Shown here: piece by piece, positions 1 through 14,419 of the stretch
Layout: each line of letters opens with the position of its first letter
Position numbering within the stretch: the first letter of the stretch is position 1
Source: Escherichia phage UPWr_E1
Sequence record: PP418985.1
DNA: 64,000 bases
Direction: 5' to 3' (one strand)
The notes under the pieces: generated by a model
What the model saw: the letters and a program-made list of their open reading frames with translations, nothing else
What the model was told of the DNA's origin: nothing
The model's database searches: none
Translations under genes and position numbers: made by a program

Positions 1-798
1 CTTTCAGAAGAATCACGCGAATCAATGATGGAACGTATGGATAATTACATCGAAACATATGGCATTGAGGGGATTAATGGTTACATGATCACTGAGATGA
101 TCAGCGATCAGATTAACTTTGATGATTATGTGAAGATTATCCGCTTCCTTGAGCGCGAGACACAAGATTATGGATTTGTCAAGAAAATCATTAATGTGAT
201 GTATGAAGTACACTCCGAAGATTTTGGAGATAATGTATTCAAATATTACAAACATAACAACATAACCCCCGCAGAATATAATGCAATCTGTGATTATGTG
301 TCTGAACAATACGAATGGGTAAATGGTGCTCTCTTAGGCGAGGAAGACATGACCGACGAGATATCAGAGATTGTCGATTTGATGGATTGTGTCATGGATA
401 AAACCGAAAAGTTAAACGGTACTCTTTATCGTGGTCAACATCTTGACATTCAAACAATAGAGCGTATTATTGAAGATAAGGAATTTACCTTTAAAAACTT
501 TGTGTCGACCAGCATGACACCGATCATTTTTGGAGGATGGCTTTCAAACAGCACTAGCCTTTATTGTGAGAATCGATATGAATCGATGACCGGAAAGATG
601 CAACATTCTTGTAATGTATCATGGGTAATTGACGTAAAAGATCATAAAGGTTTTGTTGTTGGGTCGATTGCATGGAATCCTTGCGAATGTGAAGTAATTT
701 TACCGCGCGGGACTTGCATAAAGGTAAACGACGTAGTAGAATCCTTCGGCGATGAGAATCGTAGACAATTTACAATTTTCGGTGAGGTGACTAAATGA
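1..798 (+). CDS. alt: ADP-ribosyltransferase, Alt-like; ORF is open to the window start so the 5' end is missing
   Basis: Frame 1 is open from base 1. R-S-E triad of ADP-ribosyltransferases read in order: LYRGQ (Arg), FVSTSM (Ser-Thr-Ser), ECEVIL (Glu-x-Glu). Sits next to gene 54 as alt does in T4. Confidence 0.5.
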   Translation, partial: LSEESRESMMERMDNYIETYGIEGINGYMITEMISDQINFDDYVKIIRFLERETQDYGFVKKIINVMYEVHSEDFGDNVFKYYKHNNITPAEYNAICDYVSEQYEWVNGALLGEEDMTDEISEIVDLMDCVMDKTEKLNGTLYRGQHLDIQTIERIIEDKEFTFKNFVSTSMTPIIFGGWLSNSTSLYCENRYESMTGKMQHSCNVSWVIDVKDHKGFVVGSIAWNPCECEVILPRGTCIKVNDVVESFGDENRRQFTIFGEVTK

Positions 799-1280
799 AA
801 ATGATTAAACTGATTGGTCTTGCGGCTGCATTCATGCTTACTGGTTGTGCTAACATGGAAGCTATGATGAATGCTAAATCAGATCCGGTTTTCTTGCTTC
901 GTGAATGTAAAGCAGCATATGCAAGCGATGATCAGATCGAATCGTGCTTTATTTCTAAAATGGAACGTCGAGACGTGGATCGCGTTAAAGTTGGTTTAGC
1001 ACCACAGACGCAGATGTTCAAGGATGCAATCAAAGAAGCGCGGGAAAAGAAAGCACGAGAAGAAAAGAAGCGTCAAGAAGAATTGCGCAAGCAGAAAGAA
1101 GAGTCTATACAACTTGAGAAGATGAAAGCACGCGATCGTTGTATTATCATGTCTGACATGCAGATAGAGCAAGAAGCAAGAAAGGCAGCATTAAACGGTG
1201 ATTATGACCGTTATGAAGAACTTAACAGCGCAGAATTTCAAGCTAAGGCACTAAAATATTGCAATGATTTAGCAAAATAA
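795..1280 (+). CDS. Putative lipoprotein with Lys/Glu-rich coiled-coil region (161 aa)
   Basis: N-terminal signal peptide with lipobox LTGC (MKMIKLIGLAAAFMLTGC); ATGA overlap with the upstream ART gene; charged KE-rich middle. Confidence 0.55.
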   Translation: MKMIKLIGLAAAFMLTGCANMEAMMNAKSDPVFLLRECKAAYASDDQIESCFISKMERRDVDRVKVGLAPQTQMFKDAIKEAREKKAREEKKRQEELRKQKEESIQLEKMKARDRCIIMSDMQIEQEARKAALNGDYDRYEELNSAEFQAKALKYCNDLAK

Positions 1281-1306
1281 AAAGGCGGGGATAATCCCCG
1301 CCTTTC
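1281..1306. terminator. Hairpin between convergent genes, likely bidirectional rho-independent terminator
   Basis: aaaggcgggg-ataa-tccccgccttt perfect stem flanked by A/T runs, between the plus-strand lipoprotein gene and minus-strand gene 54. Confidence 0.6.
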
Positions 1307-1311
1307 GCTTA

Positions 1312-2244
1312 TCAGAACCAGTTAGTGACAGTATTCACCACACGCCCACCAACGCCATTTAGACGCGATAAAGCATTACCAGCAGCAGATAACCCACTAT
1401 CAAGTAAATTGTTCCCGAAAGTGTTTGTTATTGCGTTTATGGCCTTATCCTCAATCCATTCCCGCGCGGCTTGCTCGCCTACTGCACCAGTTTGCATAGA
1501 ACGATATGCAAAAGTAACATCGAATGTTGTGATTTCGTTGTTATTTTCATAGGTTAATTCCGGTGCACTCACACCAACAGGAACACAACCACTAAACATC
1601 ATGATCGTGTGAGGAACACCCATCCTATTATGCAAATTGACCTGAATATCTGCTTCAACGTCAACAGGAAGCGCACGAAGCCCTGTAACGGGGTCTTCTA
1701 CTGAGTTAACCCAATCCTGCATTGCTCTATAGTTTGATGCGCTAGAGTCCATTCTAAAGCTCAATACAAGAGGATCAAAATCACGTCCGGTAATTCGAAT
1801 GTTTGGCGCATTGTGGTTACGGTCCATTTCATAACTCAATCTGTTTTCTGGAACCTTAACTGCATACACCAGAAGACCGCTTGTCTTATATGCCATATTG
1901 AACCAATCAAGAGCATATGTACCAACATCAAATTGCCCCAGAAGAGATTGAACTACGCGGGATGACATTGCACCCAAAAGATATTTTTTGACACCGGATG
2001 AATCAACCGCACGCCTAACGCCCTGTACAGCAAGATTAGTCAATGCGTCAGTATAATCACCACGAGTAATCCCGAAATAGTCATTTAATGCATTTGGTAT
2101 AATATCATATACCGCACCACCCATACTTTCTAGGATCGCTTGTGTCTTATTACTTGGTGTGGTGGCAAATGCCACGCTGAATAAGTTAGATCGCTGAAAG
2201 TCAAGGTTAGCGGCTTGTTCGTTAAAATCATTTAAATCAAACAT
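1312..2244 (-). CDS. 54: Baseplate tail tube initiator gp54
   Basis: 310 aa (T4 gp54 about 320 aa); last gene of the 51-27-28-29-48-54 order; T4-like context. Confidence 0.75.
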   Translation of the reverse strand: MFDLNDFNEQAANLDFQRSNLFSVAFATTPSNKTQAILESMGGAVYDIIPNALNDYFGITRGDYTDALTNLAVQGVRRAVDSSGVKKYLLGAMSSRVVQSLLGQFDVGTYALDWFNMAYKTSGLLVYAVKVPENRLSYEMDRNHNAPNIRITGRDFDPLVLSFRMDSSASNYRAMQDWVNSVEDPVTGLRALPVDVEADIQVNLHNRMGVPHTIMMFSGCVPVGVSAPELTYENNNEITTFDVTFAYRSMQTGAVGEQAAREWIEDKAINAITNTFGNNLLDSGLSAAGNALSRLNGVGGRVVNTVTNWF

Positions 2245-5035: not shown

Positions 5036-5550
5036 GATAGGCGATCCAATATGTTAATTCCACCATAGATAGTGCCTTCCGGCGTATCCAGCGCAATAGT
5101 TTTTCTTAATCCGGTAGCCCAATCCATAATAAAAGCTGGAAAATCATGGAAGTCTACGCTAGGATCGTGATAATGATGACTCAAGAAATCAGCGTCATCG
5201 ATAATGGGGTCAGAAGTGTACATTGGATTTTTAAATTTAAAGACTTTACCATTTAAAGTAAATTCCGTCTCTGTACAAATATACACATCACACAACTTAA
5301 GACCATCCTTTTCTTCCAGACATTTACCATTAAACGCACAAAGGTTAAGCATAACCAATTCAGACTCGGCAGCGTTTAACCCAGGACAGATTGAATCAAG
5401 AAGAATCTTTAATGTTTCATCACAGCTACGAACATCTTTTAATAATCGATGTTGCTTAATCCCCATTTTTGGGATCTTGATATGTTTCCCGTTTATCTCT
5501 AATTTTTTTACAGGAACAACAAATTTTAACATAGGTTTAGTTTCTGTCAT
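5032..5550 (-). CDS. 28: Baseplate hub distal subunit gp28
   Basis: 172 aa (T4 gp28 about 177 aa); synteny 27-28-29. Confidence 0.7.
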   Translation of the reverse strand: MTETKPMLKFVVPVKKLEINGKHIKIPKMGIKQHRLLKDVRSCDETLKILLDSICPGLNAAESELVMLNLCAFNGKCLEEKDGLKLCDVYICTETEFTLNGKVFKFKNPMYTSDPIIDDADFLSHHYHDPSVDFHDFPAFIMDWATGLRKTIALDTPEGTIYGGINILDRLS

Positions 5551-6659
5551 TATATCTTACCTTCAAATTTGACTTCCTGCAATTCTTCGCTGTTACCGAT
5601 CATATACAGGTGAGTTAATGATTGCTCTCGGCTAATTTCATGCACAACTTCGTCAACAATAAAATCATTGCGTGCTTGTTGCTTCTCATCAAAGAATCGA
5701 ATAACCATACCGGGGCGCAACGAAAAATTACCGTGACACACGGCGGTAGCATACGAATCATATTGTTCTATTGTGGCAAGTTTAGAACCTTCCAAAAACG
5801 CATTCTTATAAGTTAAATCGCCGTAAGCGCCACCATGAGCAAAGTGTGCAATATTATCCCCATTACCAACAACAATTTTATTATACTGCTTAGTAACAAA
5901 ATCAATAGCTGTGTATGTCACATTGCTAAATGAATTTTTAACTTTAGCATTGCTCTTAGTCTGCCACTCGAAATTAAAAACCATCAGATTAGGCGACATA
6001 TCAATAAATTGCCCCATGAGTCTAGGCTCACAGATTATAGCTGGTATTGGCTCATTTTTTAATATTGTATCGTGTCCAGCGATCGTTATACCATCAAAAT
6101 CTTCCCAGCAATACACGAAAGACTCGGTTTCTACGCTTTGCCCGTATGCCCTCACAAAATCCATATAGTCATTTATGGTACTAACCCACGGACAACGAGG
6201 AATAACAACGTTATCACCCTTTATACTAGGTTTCCATAAAGGAACTTCCTTATAGATGGCATCAATCATGCTAGTTACGTTATTAACAGCGTTATTTGTT
6301 AATGAGCGAGAAAATTTAAGGTTTAGTGTTTCGTGATAGCTCTTTAACTGGAATGTTAAAATGTTGTCGGATTTTTGGTCAATTGTTACATTACTATGAG
6401 AGATCCCATAGATTCGGTTAAACACTTCATCTGTATTAGCAGTGGATAGCGAAATCTGAATGATCTCTCTCCCGTTTAATTTTGTATGCATCGCCTTATT
6501 ATCATAGAATTGCAACAATCCTTCGTTCACCCCACGAATCGAATCACGCAGAGTCATTGTAACAAAGGTAGCACCCAATTCTATAAAGCGATGATTTAGA
6601 AATGCCTCATAATCCTGATAAAGTTTTATTGAGACATTAGGAAACCCCGTTCTTTGCAT
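5550..6659 (-). CDS. 27: Baseplate hub subunit gp27
   Basis: 369 aa (T4 gp27 about 391 aa); synteny 51-27-28. Confidence 0.75.
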   Translation of the reverse strand: MQRTGFPNVSIKLYQDYEAFLNHRFIELGATFVTMTLRDSIRGVNEGLLQFYDNKAMHTKLNGREIIQISLSTANTDEVFNRIYGISHSNVTIDQKSDNILTFQLKSYHETLNLKFSRSLTNNAVNNVTSMIDAIYKEVPLWKPSIKGDNVVIPRCPWVSTINDYMDFVRAYGQSVETESFVYCWEDFDGITIAGHDTILKNEPIPAIICEPRLMGQFIDMSPNLMVFNFEWQTKSNAKVKNSFSNVTYTAIDFVTKQYNKIVVGNGDNIAHFAHGGAYGDLTYKNAFLEGSKLATIEQYDSYATAVCHGNFSLRPGMVIRFFDEKQQARNDFIVDEVVHEISREQSLTHLYMIGNSEELQEVKFEGKI

Positions 6660-11071: not shown

Positions 11072-11797
11072 ATGTTTGATAAAGAATATTTCGAAGAACT
11101 CCGCGCTATTGCGGCGTCCGACGACAAAGAAGCACAGAAAACAGCTAAAACAGAATTAGCTGACTACGCAAAACAATTTGATATCAAGGTCAAAAAGACG
11201 TTATCACTAGAGAACATGATCGAGTTCGTAGAAACCGAATTAACTAAACTGGCTTCCGAAATGGAAGAAGAAACTCCGGCAGAAGGAACCAGTATTAACG
11301 ATCTTATTCTGGCAGCAGATACCGCAGATGATAAAGTGGTATTCGACGAAGTTGATCCGTCTCTGGTTGAAGCAATGAAAGAACCCGAGATCGTCATTGA
11401 AGAAACAAAAGAAGAATCTCCAGCAGTTGAACCAGTGGTCGAAGAAGTTAAGTCAGTTGTTGAAGAAGCGCCGGAAGTTAAAGTGGAATCTCCGGTAGCC
11501 AACATTTTCTCCGACGAAGCAGAGCATCGTTCCCCAGCACATGACACTGATTCATTTTGTGATCTTACTGGTTTCCGTCCGACCATTTGCTTGATCGGTG
11601 GCGGTCGTGGTTACTACTCCTGCCCGTGGTGGATTTTCGACTGGATTGTTAATACTCCAGATTGGAAGAAGTACCCAGAGCGTTTCCCGCACGCGTATGT
11701 ACACGACACCCTCAAGTCACTGATCTATTATATCAAACGCGATGGGTCTGTCAAGGTGCGAGAGACTAAACACAGCCAATTCCACACTCTTAAATAA
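11072..11797 (+). CDS. inh: Putative Inh (prohead protease inhibitor)-like acidic protein
   Basis: 241 aa (T4 Inh 226 aa) between uvsW and hoc as in T4; acidic E/V/P-rich middle; sequence identity to T4 Inh not verified. Confidence 0.4.
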   Translation: MFDKEYFEELRAIAASDDKEAQKTAKTELADYAKQFDIKVKKTLSLENMIEFVETELTKLASEMEEETPAEGTSINDLILAADTADDKVVFDEVDPSLVEAMKEPEIVIEETKEESPAVEPVVEEVKSVVEEAPEVKVESPVANIFSDEAEHRSPAHDTDSFCDLTGFRPTICLIGGGRGYYSCPWWIFDWIVNTPDWKKYPERFPHAYVHDTLKSLIYYIKRDGSVKVRETKHSQFHTLK

Positions 11798-11875
11798 TAA
11801 GAGTGTAAAAGTTGTGAAATATTTGTTATGTTTTTAATTGTAGTTCCGTTATGCAATTAAAAAAGAGGATATTAC

Positions 11876-14419
11876 ATGTCTAACAAAATCAATGTATTAC
11901 ATCAAACAGAAGGTCCGGTTTATGGTTCCGTTGGTCGTCCACTTCTGTTAAAGATTGTTGTCAGTACAGCAGATTTTAAAGATTTTATAGCAGAATGGAA
12001 GCTGAACGGTGTAAATGTGCCAGCAGAACAAATTTCCGACGCGGATCAGTCTCTGTATATTGAGGAAATGCGAGAAAATCAATTTGGTACATATACATGT
12101 CACATTAAACTGAAAGACGAACCACAGGTCGGTGTAGATATTAAGCCTATTCTTGTACAGCGTAGATTTTTTATTGCACCGCAAGATCAGTCTCCGACGT
12201 ATATTAAAAAACGAATCGGCGAAGAATTAACCCTATTCGCAACACCAGCAATTGAACTAGGTCAACACCCAGAGTTTCAATGGTATCGAAATCATATTCC
12301 GGTAGAACCAGAAAAAATCGAGGACAACCGAACCGTTCATATTGCCCGTGTTGGTCTTATTGATTTTGGCAATTATACGTGTCGTGTTACTGTCCGTGGT
12401 GAACCAGCATCACAATATTGGATTAATCCAATTATTGTAGAAAAGAATGATACCCCTCCTGTAGTGCATCTTAGCGAAGAATATCCTAGCTCTATTACAG
12501 TAGCAGAGGATTCAGCGGTACATCTCAATGTACTTGTTACATCAGATGATAAAGTATCGCCTATTGAGTATACGTGGATTCATAACGGTAGGATTGTTAT
12601 CGAAGAAAACGGAAACTCTTTGGCAATTCCGCATATTCGAAAAGATCAGGAAGGTATCTGGCGTCTTGAGGTAAAACAAGGTGACACTACGGTGTATTCT
12701 AAAGATTGTCATATTGAGGTTGATAGTCAACCATTCTTTAGGATCACACGTCAACCGCAAACTCTTAACGTGTCTGGCGGTGCTTTGGGTTTATTCAGCG
12801 TTGATTATAGAACAAACTATTCACCTGTAAAGATCCAGTGGTATCGTAAAAAGAATACAGAACAGGAGTTTACACCAATTGTAGGTGAGACTAATAAAGA
12901 TCTTCATATTACACCAGCTACTACTGAATTAAACCGAGCACGCTACAAAGCTCGTATCACGTATGGCACAGACCAATACAGAGATTCAGAAGAAGCTGAA
13001 TTGCTAGTAGGTGAAGCATTAACTATTAGAATCACCAAACAACCACAAGCTCTACAAAACGTCCGAGTTTCTTCCTCACAGACGATCACTTGTGAAGCTG
13101 AAACAAACTATGAACATTATCGCTTAGATTATCAGTGGTATAAAGATAACGAATTAATGCCAGGCAAAACATCTAATGTATTGCACTTCTCATCAATCAA
13201 AAAGACAGATGAGGGGCAATATAAGTGTATTGCATCAATGGGTATTTCTGGTCATCGAATTACCGCAGAATCATCACCAGCACAGGTGACAGTAGACAAT
13301 TCAAAGGCATCACTGACTATCACTAAACAGCCAACTGGTGCAACAATTCGCACTGGTGGGTCGTGGTCTATTTCGGTCGAAGCAACATCAAACGATGCAC
13401 TACCGATTCGCTATCGCTGGTTTAAAGACGGCGAAGATCTATTCCCACAAGGCGTTGAACAAAAAAACGTTTACGGTGAAGACCATGCTCAACCTGATTC
13501 GACTGGTGTATATACTTGTCGCGTTTCGGTTGGTTTTGGTGATCACCGAGCGTCTCAAATGTCACATCCAGCAAGGGTGCTAATTAGCGATAATGTGGAA
13601 ATTGTGCCGAATGACTTACAGGTCACCGCACATCCTCATGATAATGACGTTAAGTATAATCAGCGTGTTATCTTAACAGCAAGATCTCAAAATAGCATCG
13701 GGTTAAAACCACATATTCAATGGAAAAAGGATGGTGTTGCTATTCCGGGTGCAAATTCAGAGACTTTAGTCATTGAGCACGCGAAACCATTGGATGCAGG
13801 GGTTTACACCGCAGATATTACCGCAGCAGAAAAAACGGTAACAACCAATCCGGCTACAGTTACTGTAGCAGAGCACAGCAATATTAATATCTTAAAACAT
13901 CCAGTGGATGTGGTTGCAAAAGAAGGACAAACCACCGACATTGTATTGGAAGCTCATGCGGAACATTCTGACGGTGAAACCGAAGTTAGTTATCAGTGGC
14001 ATAAAATTAAAGATGGCGTAGACACTGAAATAAGAGATGCAACAAATAAAACTTTAGTTATCCCTCATGCACAGATCAGCAAGCAAGCTCATCAAGCGAC
14101 CTATTACGCCGAGATAAAAGAAGAGAATGGACACGTTAAACATAGCGAAAAAGTTCGAGTGGTGTTTACTACCGCGAAATTAAAACGCTATGTTCACCCG
14201 ATCCCGTGGCGACGTACATCCTTCCAGTATCAAGGCTATTGGGTTATGGATGAGATTGATCGCTGTAATCGTGAAGGGCTTAACTGGCTTGAGGACTTTA
14301 CGCACACCAAATATCCAGAAGAGATCGAAACTATTGCTGCATCATTGCATCATTATTCAAATACTCATGTATTAGAATCTCGTAATGGTTATCTGGTTGA
14401 TGGTACTCAACTATTTTAA
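11876..14419 (+). CDS. hoc: Hoc-like outer capsid protein with expanded Ig-like array (847 aa)
   Basis: C-terminal YVHPIPWRRTSF...WVMDEI...ESRNGY matches the T4 Hoc capsid-binding domain (YVHPLPHR...GWWVMDEI...ESRNGY); upstream repeated Ig-like modules of about 90-100 aa with YTC-x-V motifs. Confidence 0.85.
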   Translation: MSNKINVLHQTEGPVYGSVGRPLLLKIVVSTADFKDFIAEWKLNGVNVPAEQISDADQSLYIEEMRENQFGTYTCHIKLKDEPQVGVDIKPILVQRRFFIAPQDQSPTYIKKRIGEELTLFATPAIELGQHPEFQWYRNHIPVEPEKIEDNRTVHIARVGLIDFGNYTCRVTVRGEPASQYWINPIIVEKNDTPPVVHLSEEYPSSITVAEDSAVHLNVLVTSDDKVSPIEYTWIHNGRIVIEENGNSLAIPHIRKDQEGIWRLEVKQGDTTVYSKDCHIEVDSQPFFRITRQPQTLNVSGGALGLFSVDYRTNYSPVKIQWYRKKNTEQEFTPIVGETNKDLHITPATTELNRARYKARITYGTDQYRDSEEAELLVGEALTIRITKQPQALQNVRVSSSQTITCEAETNYEHYRLDYQWYKDNELMPGKTSNVLHFSSIKKTDEGQYKCIASMGISGHRITAESSPAQVTVDNSKASLTITKQPTGATIRTGGSWSISVEATSNDALPIRYRWFKDGEDLFPQGVEQKNVYGEDHAQPDSTGVYTCRVSVGFGDHRASQMSHPARVLISDNVEIVPNDLQVTAHPHDNDVKYNQRVILTARSQNSIGLKPHIQWKKDGVAIPGANSETLVIEHAKPLDAGVYTADITAAEKTVTTNPATVTVAEHSNINILKHPVDVVAKEGQTTDIVLEAHAEHSDGETEVSYQWHKIKDGVDTEIRDATNKTLVIPHAQISKQAHQATYYAEIKEENGHVKHSEKVRVVFTTAKLKRYVHPIPWRRTSFQYQGYWVMDEIDRCNREGLNWLEDFTHTKYPEEIETIAASLHHYSNTHVLESRNGYLVDGTQLF

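Follow-up and report, generated by a model that had tools for sequence, protein, structure and literature searches.

The genome of Escherichia phage UPWr_E1 carries, directly downstream of a gene for a small ADP-ribosyltransferase (ART), a short open reading frame (ORF) that resembles a lipoprotein gene, and the locus raises the question of what such a protein does at the envelope of the infected cell. We analysed the 64,000-nucleotide stretch of sequence record PP418985.1 in which it lies (hereafter the window). The ORF occupies positions 795..1280 on the + strand, starts with ATG, encodes 161 amino acids plus a stop and has the N-terminus MKMIKLIGLAAAFMLTGC. Its product appears to be an orphan lipoprotein whose mature domain is replaced as a unit behind a conserved signal peptide, and we tentatively propose that it helps to exclude other phages.

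Bases 1-2400 of the window matched 58 phage records at 90-99% identity, all of them Krischviruses (relatives of RB49, JSE and Phi1 within the T4-type Straboviridae). The lipoprotein gene was present in all 58 of these records and in metagenomic relatives, always at one locus. Its features at the DNA level are as follows.

783..789, + strand: Shine-Dalgarno (SD) sequence GAGGTGA, just 5' of the ATG at 795, read from the sequence
795..1280, + strand: lipoprotein coding sequence (CDS), PHROG 16112 (function unannotated), dN/dS 0.105, with 41 homologues, all phage-borne
795..848, + strand: predicted type II signal peptide, ending in the lipobox L-T-G-C (nucleotides 837-848), with the codon of the lipidated Cys18 at 846-848
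849..855, + strand: recurrent recombination junction, seen in three independent comparisons, with Whisky, PHB13 and contig L017

The N-terminus agrees with every term of PROSITE PS51257. Lys2 and Lys5, both among the first 7 residues, provide the charge term, the lipobox M-L-T-G-C comes after six uncharged residues, and the box pattern [LIVMFWSTAG]2-[LIVMFYSTAGCQ]-[AGS]-C, which places Cys at 15-35, is fitted by GLAAAF-ML-T-G-C with Cys at position 18. When all six-frame ORFs of at least 40 amino acids in the window were filtered for a lipobox and a hydrophobic core, this ORF alone passed, from starts at 795 and 801. The 19-residue Kyte-Doolittle mean reached a maximum of 1.56 in the signal versus 0.15 in the mature part, and by the same measure no second hydrophobic segment followed the signal peptide anywhere in the mature protein. 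The last 19 residues had a mean of -0.39, which bears out an earlier note on this DNA in its statement that a C-terminal transmembrane segment is absent and that the protein is not a unimolecular spanin.

The signal is a property of the whole family. PS51257 was matched by 45 of 48 retrieved family proteins, including distant members with other signal sequences, and the three exceptions were a mis-called start, an INGC box and an unrelated retrieved protein. The residue at +2, after the lipidated Cys, is Ala in the window protein and Ala, Ser or Thr family-wide, never Asp. E. coli lipoproteins without Asp at +2 are sorted to the outer membrane by the Lol system, and the composition of this position predicts the same delivery here. 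A canonical, family-wide conserved signal for signal peptidase II, with lipidation and cleavage as predicted consequences, is strongly supported by these patterns. The earlier note had read an LTGC lipobox after a signal peptide and had expected signal peptidase II processing to be predicted, and both parts of that reading hold for the window protein, with Cys18 followed by Ala. The authors of the phage W115 genome paper, whose pipeline included LipoP, gave the same gene the label "putative lipoprotein".

The dN/dS value was obtained against an 83%-identical allele in a 170-kb human-gut phage contig (L017; dS 0.91). A GAGGT-type SD stands at equal spacing in most of the divergent loci of the family, and the ART stop and the lipoprotein start overlap (ATGA). 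The low dN/dS, the SD and this overlap together indicate that the ORF is a real gene, and a genuine, selectively maintained and probably early gene is strongly supported by the computed evidence. As a separate observation, three truncated members (P0035, P0036 and P0037) are frameshifted, 96-107 amino acids long and all end in ...RRVYTT. The frameshift falls within or just 5' of the A-rich region that encodes the charged helix described below, and the truncated alleles sit in otherwise full-length phage contigs, one of 164,992 bp. The truncation may be either a natural loss of function or a homopolymer sequencing error; such alleles fit a dispensable accessory gene.

Searches beyond the family returned little. 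The 41 homologues came from a word-indexed search, and an exhaustive hidden Markov model (HMM) search with the mature domain only against 1.84 billion cluster representatives gave 9 clusters, all from the protein's own family, so there is no remote homology to exploit. Pfam, NCBIfam and PADLOC gave only sub-threshold matches, of which those to lipoprotein families covered the signal peptide only; PHROGs gave the protein's own unannotated family, phrog_16112, and no annotated family that matched beyond the signal peptide. A PDB sequence-profile search had nothing below E 0.1, a PDB fold search found no match to the model, BFVD returned only the protein's own family, and a literature search found no paper characterising the gene. 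An orphan family restricted to one phage lineage, which is not a member of the spanin, Llp/Cor, Spackle or Lpp families, is strongly supported by these results.

Exchange of the mature domain

The 58 records fall into three alleles.

Allele A: 50 of 58 records, including the window
Allele B': 6 of 58 records, namely PHB13, E26, G37-3 and 011D4 (at least 99% mutual identity) and PTE-Eco09 and AV108 (91%)
Allele B: 2 of 58 records, Whisky and JK32

Full-length A and B' proteins were ~30-33% identical, compared with 46-48% for B and B'; in the aligned mature regions, A was ~28% identical to B or B'. The flanks of this cassette are 98-100% identical, with a sharp junction at the end of the lipobox. 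Whisky DNA matches the window at 100% across ART and the signal-peptide region as far as the Cys-Ala codons, beyond which identity falls abruptly to the random level. In PHB13, the break lies a few codons before that of Whisky and 100% identity resumes at the terminator, so that only the mature domain was replaced. ART is 98% identical across the alleles (Whisky, PHB13), and gp54 and gp48 of PHB13 are 99% identical. The same break was found in the gut contig L017, in which the signal part has 96.5% nucleotide identity versus 80.9% for the mature part. An identical 19-residue signal peptide is shared by the window protein, P0008, P0011, P0016, P0033 and the B-type proteins P0038-P0041, whose mature parts are ~30% identical; the signal peptide of P0034 differs from it by one residue. 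The signal-peptide/lipobox sequence seems to act as a portable recombination anchor, judging from these alignments.

We then compared the alleles with other phage genes. Among the 58 records, the gp38 adhesin forms two groups, each of which contains both A and B/B' phages.

gp38 at least 93% identical to JSE: allele A in RB49, Phi1, Cognac and others; allele B/B' in Whisky, PTE-Eco09 and AV108
gp38 ~82% identical to JSE: allele A in Sf20, GEC-3S, JEP8, the Makalu phages and others; allele B/B' in PHB13, E26, 011D4 and JK32

This grouping agrees with a published adhesin comparison, in which Whisky49, RB49 and Cognac49 were very similar and Brandy49 was divergent (Efimov et al. 2022). The distal part of gp37 is strongly mosaic, and in it phages with allele B are interspersed with those carrying allele A. 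In JSE, gp38 lies ~68 kb from the lipoprotein gene. The simple model of a receptor mask matched to the receptor-binding protein (RBP) was rejected at this point, as the alleles did not track the gp37 tip or gp38 over the 58 records.

A linkage scan in 300-bp tiles compared the complete genomes of PHB13 and PTE-Eco09 (both B') and ELT4 (A) with JSE/window (A). It covers two B' genomes and two A backgrounds, with allele B (Whisky, JK32) outside it, and it uses tiles in which the B' genomes are at least 88% identical to each other, so that a partner differing between PHB13 and PTE-Eco09 would escape. The two B' phages shared 26 regions that differed from JSE/window, five of which were left after ELT4 was added, the lipoprotein cassette included. 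The cassette (13% vs 95%) was the sole region to stay allele-specific; the four other candidates were discarded as co-varying regions, being carried at 95-100% identity by A-type phages, among them RB49, JEP8, JSE, Cognac, ELT3 and phiS. No phage gene co-varying with the allele was found among gp38, gp37, ART and the regions of this four-genome scan, which include the spanin, holin and rI regions. Within the limits of the scan, exchange of the mature domain as an autonomous cassette is strongly supported by the sequence comparisons.

A difference in the wac-gp12-gp11-gp10-gp9 region was also considered as allele-linked and turned out to be a trait of the JSE lineage. In both the window and JSE, this whisker/short-tail-fibre/baseplate-pin block, homologous to PHB13 152851-159000, has a minority form that is only ~77-80% identical to the common version, which is itself 98-99% identical among RB49, Phi1, Cognac, Whisky, GEC-3S and most Krischviruses. 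The minority block places the window phage in the JSE/G2248/KFS-EC sub-lineage for that block.

The autonomy of the cassette weakens models that need a co-evolving phage partner, such as a spanin pair, an RBP-matched mask or immunity to the ART, and suggests that the target lies in the host, or is conserved, or belongs to a foreign phage. One such possibility is a host-directed envelope effector, which would bind a variable periplasmic or outer-membrane protein of the host to neutralise a defence, block a stress response or prevent the loss of progeny on debris, with alleles matched to host variants. The independence of the cassette from all phage genes tested suggests a non-phage or conserved partner, and the broad and varied host ranges of Krischviruses on O-antigen-bearing E. 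coli, as well as the probable early expression of the gene, are consistent with this idea. However, neither PADLOC nor Pfam revealed similarity to an anti-defence or defence family, and A-type and B-type phages both plate on K-12. We consider this role unlikely.

Predicted architecture of the mature protein

AlphaFold2 modelled the window allele (A) as an all-alpha protein (pLDDT, the model's per-residue confidence, 86.5) with helices at residues 31-41, 45-65, 72-133, 137-143 and 146-160. Allele B from Whisky, 28-31% identical, gave the same helix pattern, with a long helix of 63 residues (pLDDT 84.9). The features that define the predicted architecture are listed below.

906..947, + strand: Cys38 (906-908) and Cys51 (945-947), invariant; putative disulfide of an N-terminal hairpin formed by helices 31-41 and 45-65
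1008..1193, + strand: long continuous helix, residues 72-133 (62 residues), AlphaFold2 pLDDT 89-96 here
1032..1103, + strand: ER/K-type charged segment KEAREKKAREEKKRQEELRKQKEE, residues 80-103, inside the 62-residue helix
1140..1262, + strand: Cys116 (1140-1142) and Cys156 (1260-1262) with the Gly135 turn between, invariant; putative disulfide of a C-terminal helical head

The earlier note had described a charged coiled coil. Its Lys/Glu-rich helical segment is indeed present, but a coiled coil is not the best description of it. E, K, R, D and Q make up 88% of the charged 24-mer, and only 1 of its 24 residues is strongly hydrophobic; the best heptad register fills the a/d positions to 0.17, and 19 opposite-charge pairs occur at i/i+3 or i/i+4. 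The density of charge pairs and the lack of a hydrophobic seam are the signature of an ER/K single alpha-helix (SAH). Such helices are known mainly from eukaryotic cytoplasmic proteins. The central 24-mer shares the composition and the i/i+4 charge pattern of the SAH spacers of myosin VI/X and caldesmon, whereas here the resemblance is computed from sequence and concerns a periplasmic phage protein. Most of the insertions and deletions in the family fall in the central charged part of the long helix.

Multiple alignment of 14 divergent members showed that the lipobox Gly-Cys, Cys38, Cys51, Cys116, Cys156, Asp60, Gly67 and Gly135 are invariant; the aligned divergent lipoproteins that share the four Cys residues are 23-45% identical. 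Four invariant Cys residues in an exported protein imply two periplasmic disulfides, for which we infer from the model the pairing Cys38-Cys51 and Cys116-Cys156, with the ER/K stretch as the exposed middle of a rod. If straight, the 62-residue helix would be ~9 nm long. The mature Lpp protein has 58 residues and measures ~8 nm. The similar length of the rod suggests that a head anchored to the outer membrane could reach near the peptidoglycan layer, and the model would place the C-terminal head close to that depth. Taken together, a lipoprotein that is outer-membrane anchored, disulfide-stapled and rod-shaped is a strongly supported prediction.

The protein is like Lpp and OprI in being an outer-membrane lipoprotein that consists essentially of one long helix of similar length, and in most members it ends in Lys; this likeness could mean that it is a strut. 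It would tether the outer membrane to the peptidoglycan or space the two, perhaps through cross-linking of the C-terminal Lys by host L,D-transpeptidases, and would stabilise or re-space the envelope until lysis. An outer-membrane-anchored helix of 62-63 residues is conserved in both alleles, its length is close to that of mature Lpp, and most members end in Lys. Allele B also matched the Lpp/OprI model NF040598 weakly, though over its full length (positions 1-89 of 90; 15.7 bits, E 0.017). However, the cutoff of that model is 43 bits, far above this score, and the window allele did not match it. The central helix has neither an alanine-zipper nor a heptad core, the protein adds four cysteines and helical hairpin caps that set it apart from Lpp and OprI, and in three independent members (P0032, P0040 and P0048) the terminal Lys is replaced with Asn. 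Length variants ranging from -15 to +11 residues also speak against a strut, and whole-domain allele replacement is not obviously explained by it. This explanation appears improbable.

The ADP-ribosyltransferase operon

The following features flank the lipoprotein gene.

25..798, + strand: small Alt-like ART gene; the window cuts off its first 27 nucleotides (9 codons), and the protein has 274 amino acids in relatives
1280..1306, no strand assigned: GC-rich hairpin GGCGGGGAT-AAT-CCCCGCC, which separates the lipoprotein gene from the convergent gp54 gene
1312..2244, - strand: gp54 baseplate/tail-tube initiator gene, convergent with the lipoprotein gene and the start of the late virion module

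The ART assignment made in the earlier note, and with it the position of the lipoprotein gene directly downstream, was confirmed by Pfam (ADPrib_exo_Tox, E 5.8e-16) and PHROG (phrog_15144, E 1e-183) matches and fits the ATGA overlap. The R-STS-ExE residues are invariant in the ART alignment. This small ART is a second ART besides Alt and ModB, and its catalytic residues have been kept despite fast divergence. The annotated order in JSE is Alt (683 amino acids), the small ART (274 amino acids), a 161-amino-acid "hypothetical protein" and then, on the opposite strand, gp54, gp48, gp29, gp28 and gp27. A terminator scan assigned the 1280..1306 hairpin to the - strand, where its 12 pairs are accompanied by a T-run; the T-run on the + strand is weaker (TTTCGCTT).

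A promoter-like element of the kind called PeSL was detected 5' of ART. It has a TTGACA/T box, 17 nucleotides and a TATACT box (TAGAAT in the most distant relative), with a GGGG...CCCC stem-loop separating the -35 from the -10 box and followed by a T-run; it thus combines sigma-70 -35/-10 boxes with a GC stem-loop, and SD and ATG follow. The element was present in 9 of 9 loci examined (JSE, Whisky, PHB13 and six metagenomic relatives, 97% identical to the window or more distant). In JSE (L001) it lies at ~5905-5973, just 5' of window position 1, and it was also found in L002, L003, L007, L008, L011, L012, L013 and L017. Its stem shows compensatory changes in distant relatives (ACTAG/CTAG, TTCAG/CTGA, ATCAG/CTGT and AACAG/CTGT). 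In RB49 and phi1, PeSLs are strong sigma-70 early promoters joined to terminators and sites of modular shuffling, as supported by in vivo expression data (Arbiol et al. 2010, PMC2839356). Transcription of Alt probably stops at this element, and that of ART and the lipoprotein probably begins there. In the 14.4-kb JSE locus, the closest exact copy of the late-promoter motif (TATAAATA) is on the opposite strand, at a distance of more than 6 kb. By contrast, the sequence before Alt, CATAAATA, departs from the late consensus at a single position. From the PeSL and the distance of the late motif, we infer that ART and the lipoprotein form a bicistron that is transcribed early.

This invariant pairing could mean that the lipoprotein is a partner of ART, as an immunity, chaperone or targeting factor. 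In every member with readable context, the gene lies directly 3' of a 264-282-amino-acid ADPrib_exo_Tox gene and is convergent with gp54/gp48/gp29, a context held down to 23% lipoprotein identity; the two genes usually overlap or abut and share one promoter. Both also evolve much faster than their neighbours, with 27-64% identity for ART and 23-45% for the lipoprotein in distant lineages versus 72-91% for gp54 and gp48. However, ART lacks a signal peptide and is thus cytoplasmic, which puts it in a different compartment from the exported lipoprotein. In addition, ART stays 98% identical while the mature domain is swapped for a 28%-identical allele, which argues against a specific physical pair, and the loci come from one phage lineage with conserved gene order, so that the pairing is not independent evidence. 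An IMG/VR scan with the ART alignment for further loci added two, both near-identical. We regard a partnership with ART as very improbable.

Two further observations concern the surrounding genes. In the gut-metagenome relatives L017 and L018, a GmrSD_N (PF03235) gene occupies positions 1-445; ~600 bp separate it from alt, whose CDS begins downstream at 1050. Positions 5550-6659 of the window (- strand) hold one intact gp27 ORF of 369 amino acids, and the corresponding JSE region (L001 11550-12660) is annotated as two overlapping CDSs, 11550-11951 and 11926-12660; the intact window ORF suggests that the JSE record contains a frameshift or a sequencing error here.

Candidate roles in the cell envelope

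One of the functions suggested in the earlier note was that of an outer-membrane spanin component, and a search for an inner-membrane partner was proposed with it. This reading failed on several counts. The immediate neighbours of the gene are ART and gp54, neither of them an inner-membrane spanin (i-spanin), and the canonical pair pseT.3/pseT.2 is present ~16 kb away in JSE (L004 15928-16745). The promoter is of the early sigma-70 type, and the mature protein is a predicted all-alpha rod of 143 residues that has no C-terminal transmembrane domain (TMD). No membership in an outer-membrane spanin (o-spanin) family was found, the PHROG scan giving phrog_16112 only. With its start corrected, JSE PseT.3 has an N-terminal TMD, and JSE PseT.2 has the lipobox LSSC, the motif WLADIKRY (WLNDVKRY in T4) and two Cys residues 11 residues apart, as are C87 and C98 of T4. 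Kongari et al. 2018 (PMC6139136) assign RB49, JSE and Phi1 to the T4 families of i-spanins and o-spanins. Both JSE annotations merit comment: the RefSeq start of pseT.3 omits the TMD, an upstream in-frame ATG giving MSKLIYIVIISVLLGVGG..., and pseT.2 is annotated with a long N-terminal extension that holds a TMD-like stretch before LSSC. The lipoprotein shares with the o-spanins (lambda Rz1, T4 PseT.2) and the unimolecular spanin T1 gp11 an outer-membrane lipoprotein signal and periplasmic cysteines. It differs in being an all-alpha protein of 143 amino acids, compared with the short Pro-rich Rz1 and the beta-alpha-beta PseT.2, and in lacking the C-terminal TMD of T1 gp11.

A looser connection to lysis is conceivable, in which the protein would modulate the spanins, the holin/antiholin or lysis inhibition from the outer-membrane side, or would form an additional o-spanin-like part. 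With its predicted outer-membrane anchor and long helix, the protein has a likeness to the periplasmic domains of spanins, and rI, rIIA, rIIB and t are present in Krischviruses. T4 lysis inhibition depends on the handling of superinfecting phage at the envelope. Retention of rI, rIIA/B and t suggests that Krischviruses probably still practise lysis inhibition, for which superinfection has to be sensed. On the other side stand the complete PseT.3/PseT.2 pair, the lack of an adjacent partner, the early type of promoter, the absence of an allele-co-varying locus in a scan that covered the spanin, holin and rI regions, and the truncated alleles in otherwise complete genomes. We hold a lysis accessory role to be quite improbable.

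The second function named in the earlier note was superinfection exclusion by masking of a receptor, and here the specific form of the claim has to be separated from the general one. T5 Llp and the Cor family (T1, phi80, N15) are known superinfection-exclusion lipoproteins. As is predicted for the present protein, they are encoded by phages, early, dispensable, equipped with a type II signal peptide, stabilised by disulfides and located at the inner leaflet of the outer membrane, facing the periplasm. However, Llp has 61 mature residues, its gene adjoins that of the RBP pb5, and it acts by jamming FhuA, a TonB-dependent transporter, compared with an elongated rod of 143 residues here. The phrog_1119 (Cor) match had an E value of 0.006 and covered residues 1-45 only, mostly signal peptide. 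The window protein did not match the NCBIfam Cor model NF047972, to which residues 1-31 of a distant member scored 13.4 bits, below the cutoff of 31; nor did the PDB fold search support a fold likeness to Llp or Cor. With no similarity beyond the signal peptide, no adjacent RBP gene and alleles that vary independently of gp38 and the gp37 tip, the receptor-masking form of the claim was not sustained. The general claim of superinfection exclusion is plausible.

T4 provides another precedent. Its Spackle protein is a soluble product of signal peptidase I (SPI) processing, not a lipoprotein. Spackle (Sp, gp61.3) has been described as an early periplasmic inhibitor of the gp5 tail lysozyme that blocks superinfecting phage (PMC7677548). 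As is predicted for the lipoprotein, Spackle is small, helical, exported to the periplasm and made early by a T4-type phage, but it is encoded at another genomic locus and has no sequence relationship to it; hhalign of the family profile with Spackle aligned 16 signal-peptide residues only, at 5% probability. Neither tblastn nor phmmer detected a homologue of T4 Imm or Spackle in the JSE genome and the window together; the best match, with E 0.05, fell inside gene 41. In the absence of detectable imm and sp, superinfection exclusion in Krischviruses is not accounted for by known genes.

We propose, as a tentative reading with somewhat less than an even chance of being right, that the lipoprotein acts in an envelope-level conflict, most likely by excluding later-arriving phages. 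The first steps of this reading are strongly supported by the computed evidence: ART and the lipoprotein are probably co-transcribed from the PeSL just upstream of the window, and the lipoprotein, translated from its own strong SD, is a predicted substrate of signal peptidase II. The mature 143 residues are predicted to fold in the oxidising periplasm into an all-helical rod, with the disulfide-stapled N-terminal hairpin near the anchor, the ~9-nm helix with its ER/K centre, and the stapled head at the far end. The envelope of the infected cell would be remodelled to the advantage of the phage, and later arrivals would be excluded or disabled through a host envelope component or a conserved part of the incoming tail tip. 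The protein may cover the role of T4 Imm and Spackle, which were not detected in Krischviruses. Its exposed mature domain would be subject to diversifying or balancing exchange, with whole-domain alleles swapped by recombination at the conserved sequence for the signal peptide and lipobox; no change that would compensate for the swap was found in other parts of the phage genome.

A more specific version would make the protein the founder of a new superinfection-exclusion or envelope-conflict class: an anchored, doubly stapled ~9-nm rod, with an ER/K helix as its rigid spacer, would hold a rapidly diversifying head at peptidoglycan depth. The head would intercept either the tail tip of a competing T-even phage, through its gp5 lysozyme, tail tube or tape measure, or some host factor needed by the incoming phage; the protein would replace Imm/Spackle and be exchanged as allelic cassettes at the lipobox-coding sequence. 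As a whole, this version is rather unlikely.

Several points weigh against an exclusion role. The family, profile and fold searches were empty and provide no homology tie to exclusion or to any other function. Llp and Cor are small, lie beside the RBP gene and target TonB-dependent transporters, whereas the protein studied here exceeds them 2-3-fold in size and shows no link to the type of RBP, and its phages use OmpA or O-antigen. This use of O-antigen or OmpA by Krischviruses follows Efimov et al. 2022. Neutral mosaicism, which is widespread in genomes of this kind, could also give the allele swaps, as PHB13 differs from JSE/window in 37 divergent regions. The early timing is derived from a promoter consensus, in a promoter that lies outside the window and was seen in relatives only; the disulfide pairing and the depth of the rod are deduced from helix boundaries in a monomer model; and the absence of Imm and Sp is based on pairwise sequence methods only.

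As a phage lipoprotein, the protein is ordinary; its architecture is unusual, and the signature of allele exchange is clear. Krischviruses (relatives of RB49, JSE and phi1) are widely used therapy-type coliphages, and this gene, probably early, with a predicted exported product and apparently dispensable, is a candidate for the handling of superinfection that is cheap to test. Its naturally swapped alleles, of which there are three or more, diverge deeply yet sit in near-isogenic backgrounds and amount to a ready-made allele-swap experiment. If exclusion is not its function, the gene would be one more orphan early gene of the hyperplastic region. If it is, the protein would represent a structurally new type of phage lipoprotein beside the Llp/Cor paradigm, and the finding would bear on the design of phage cocktails, whose members could exclude one another.

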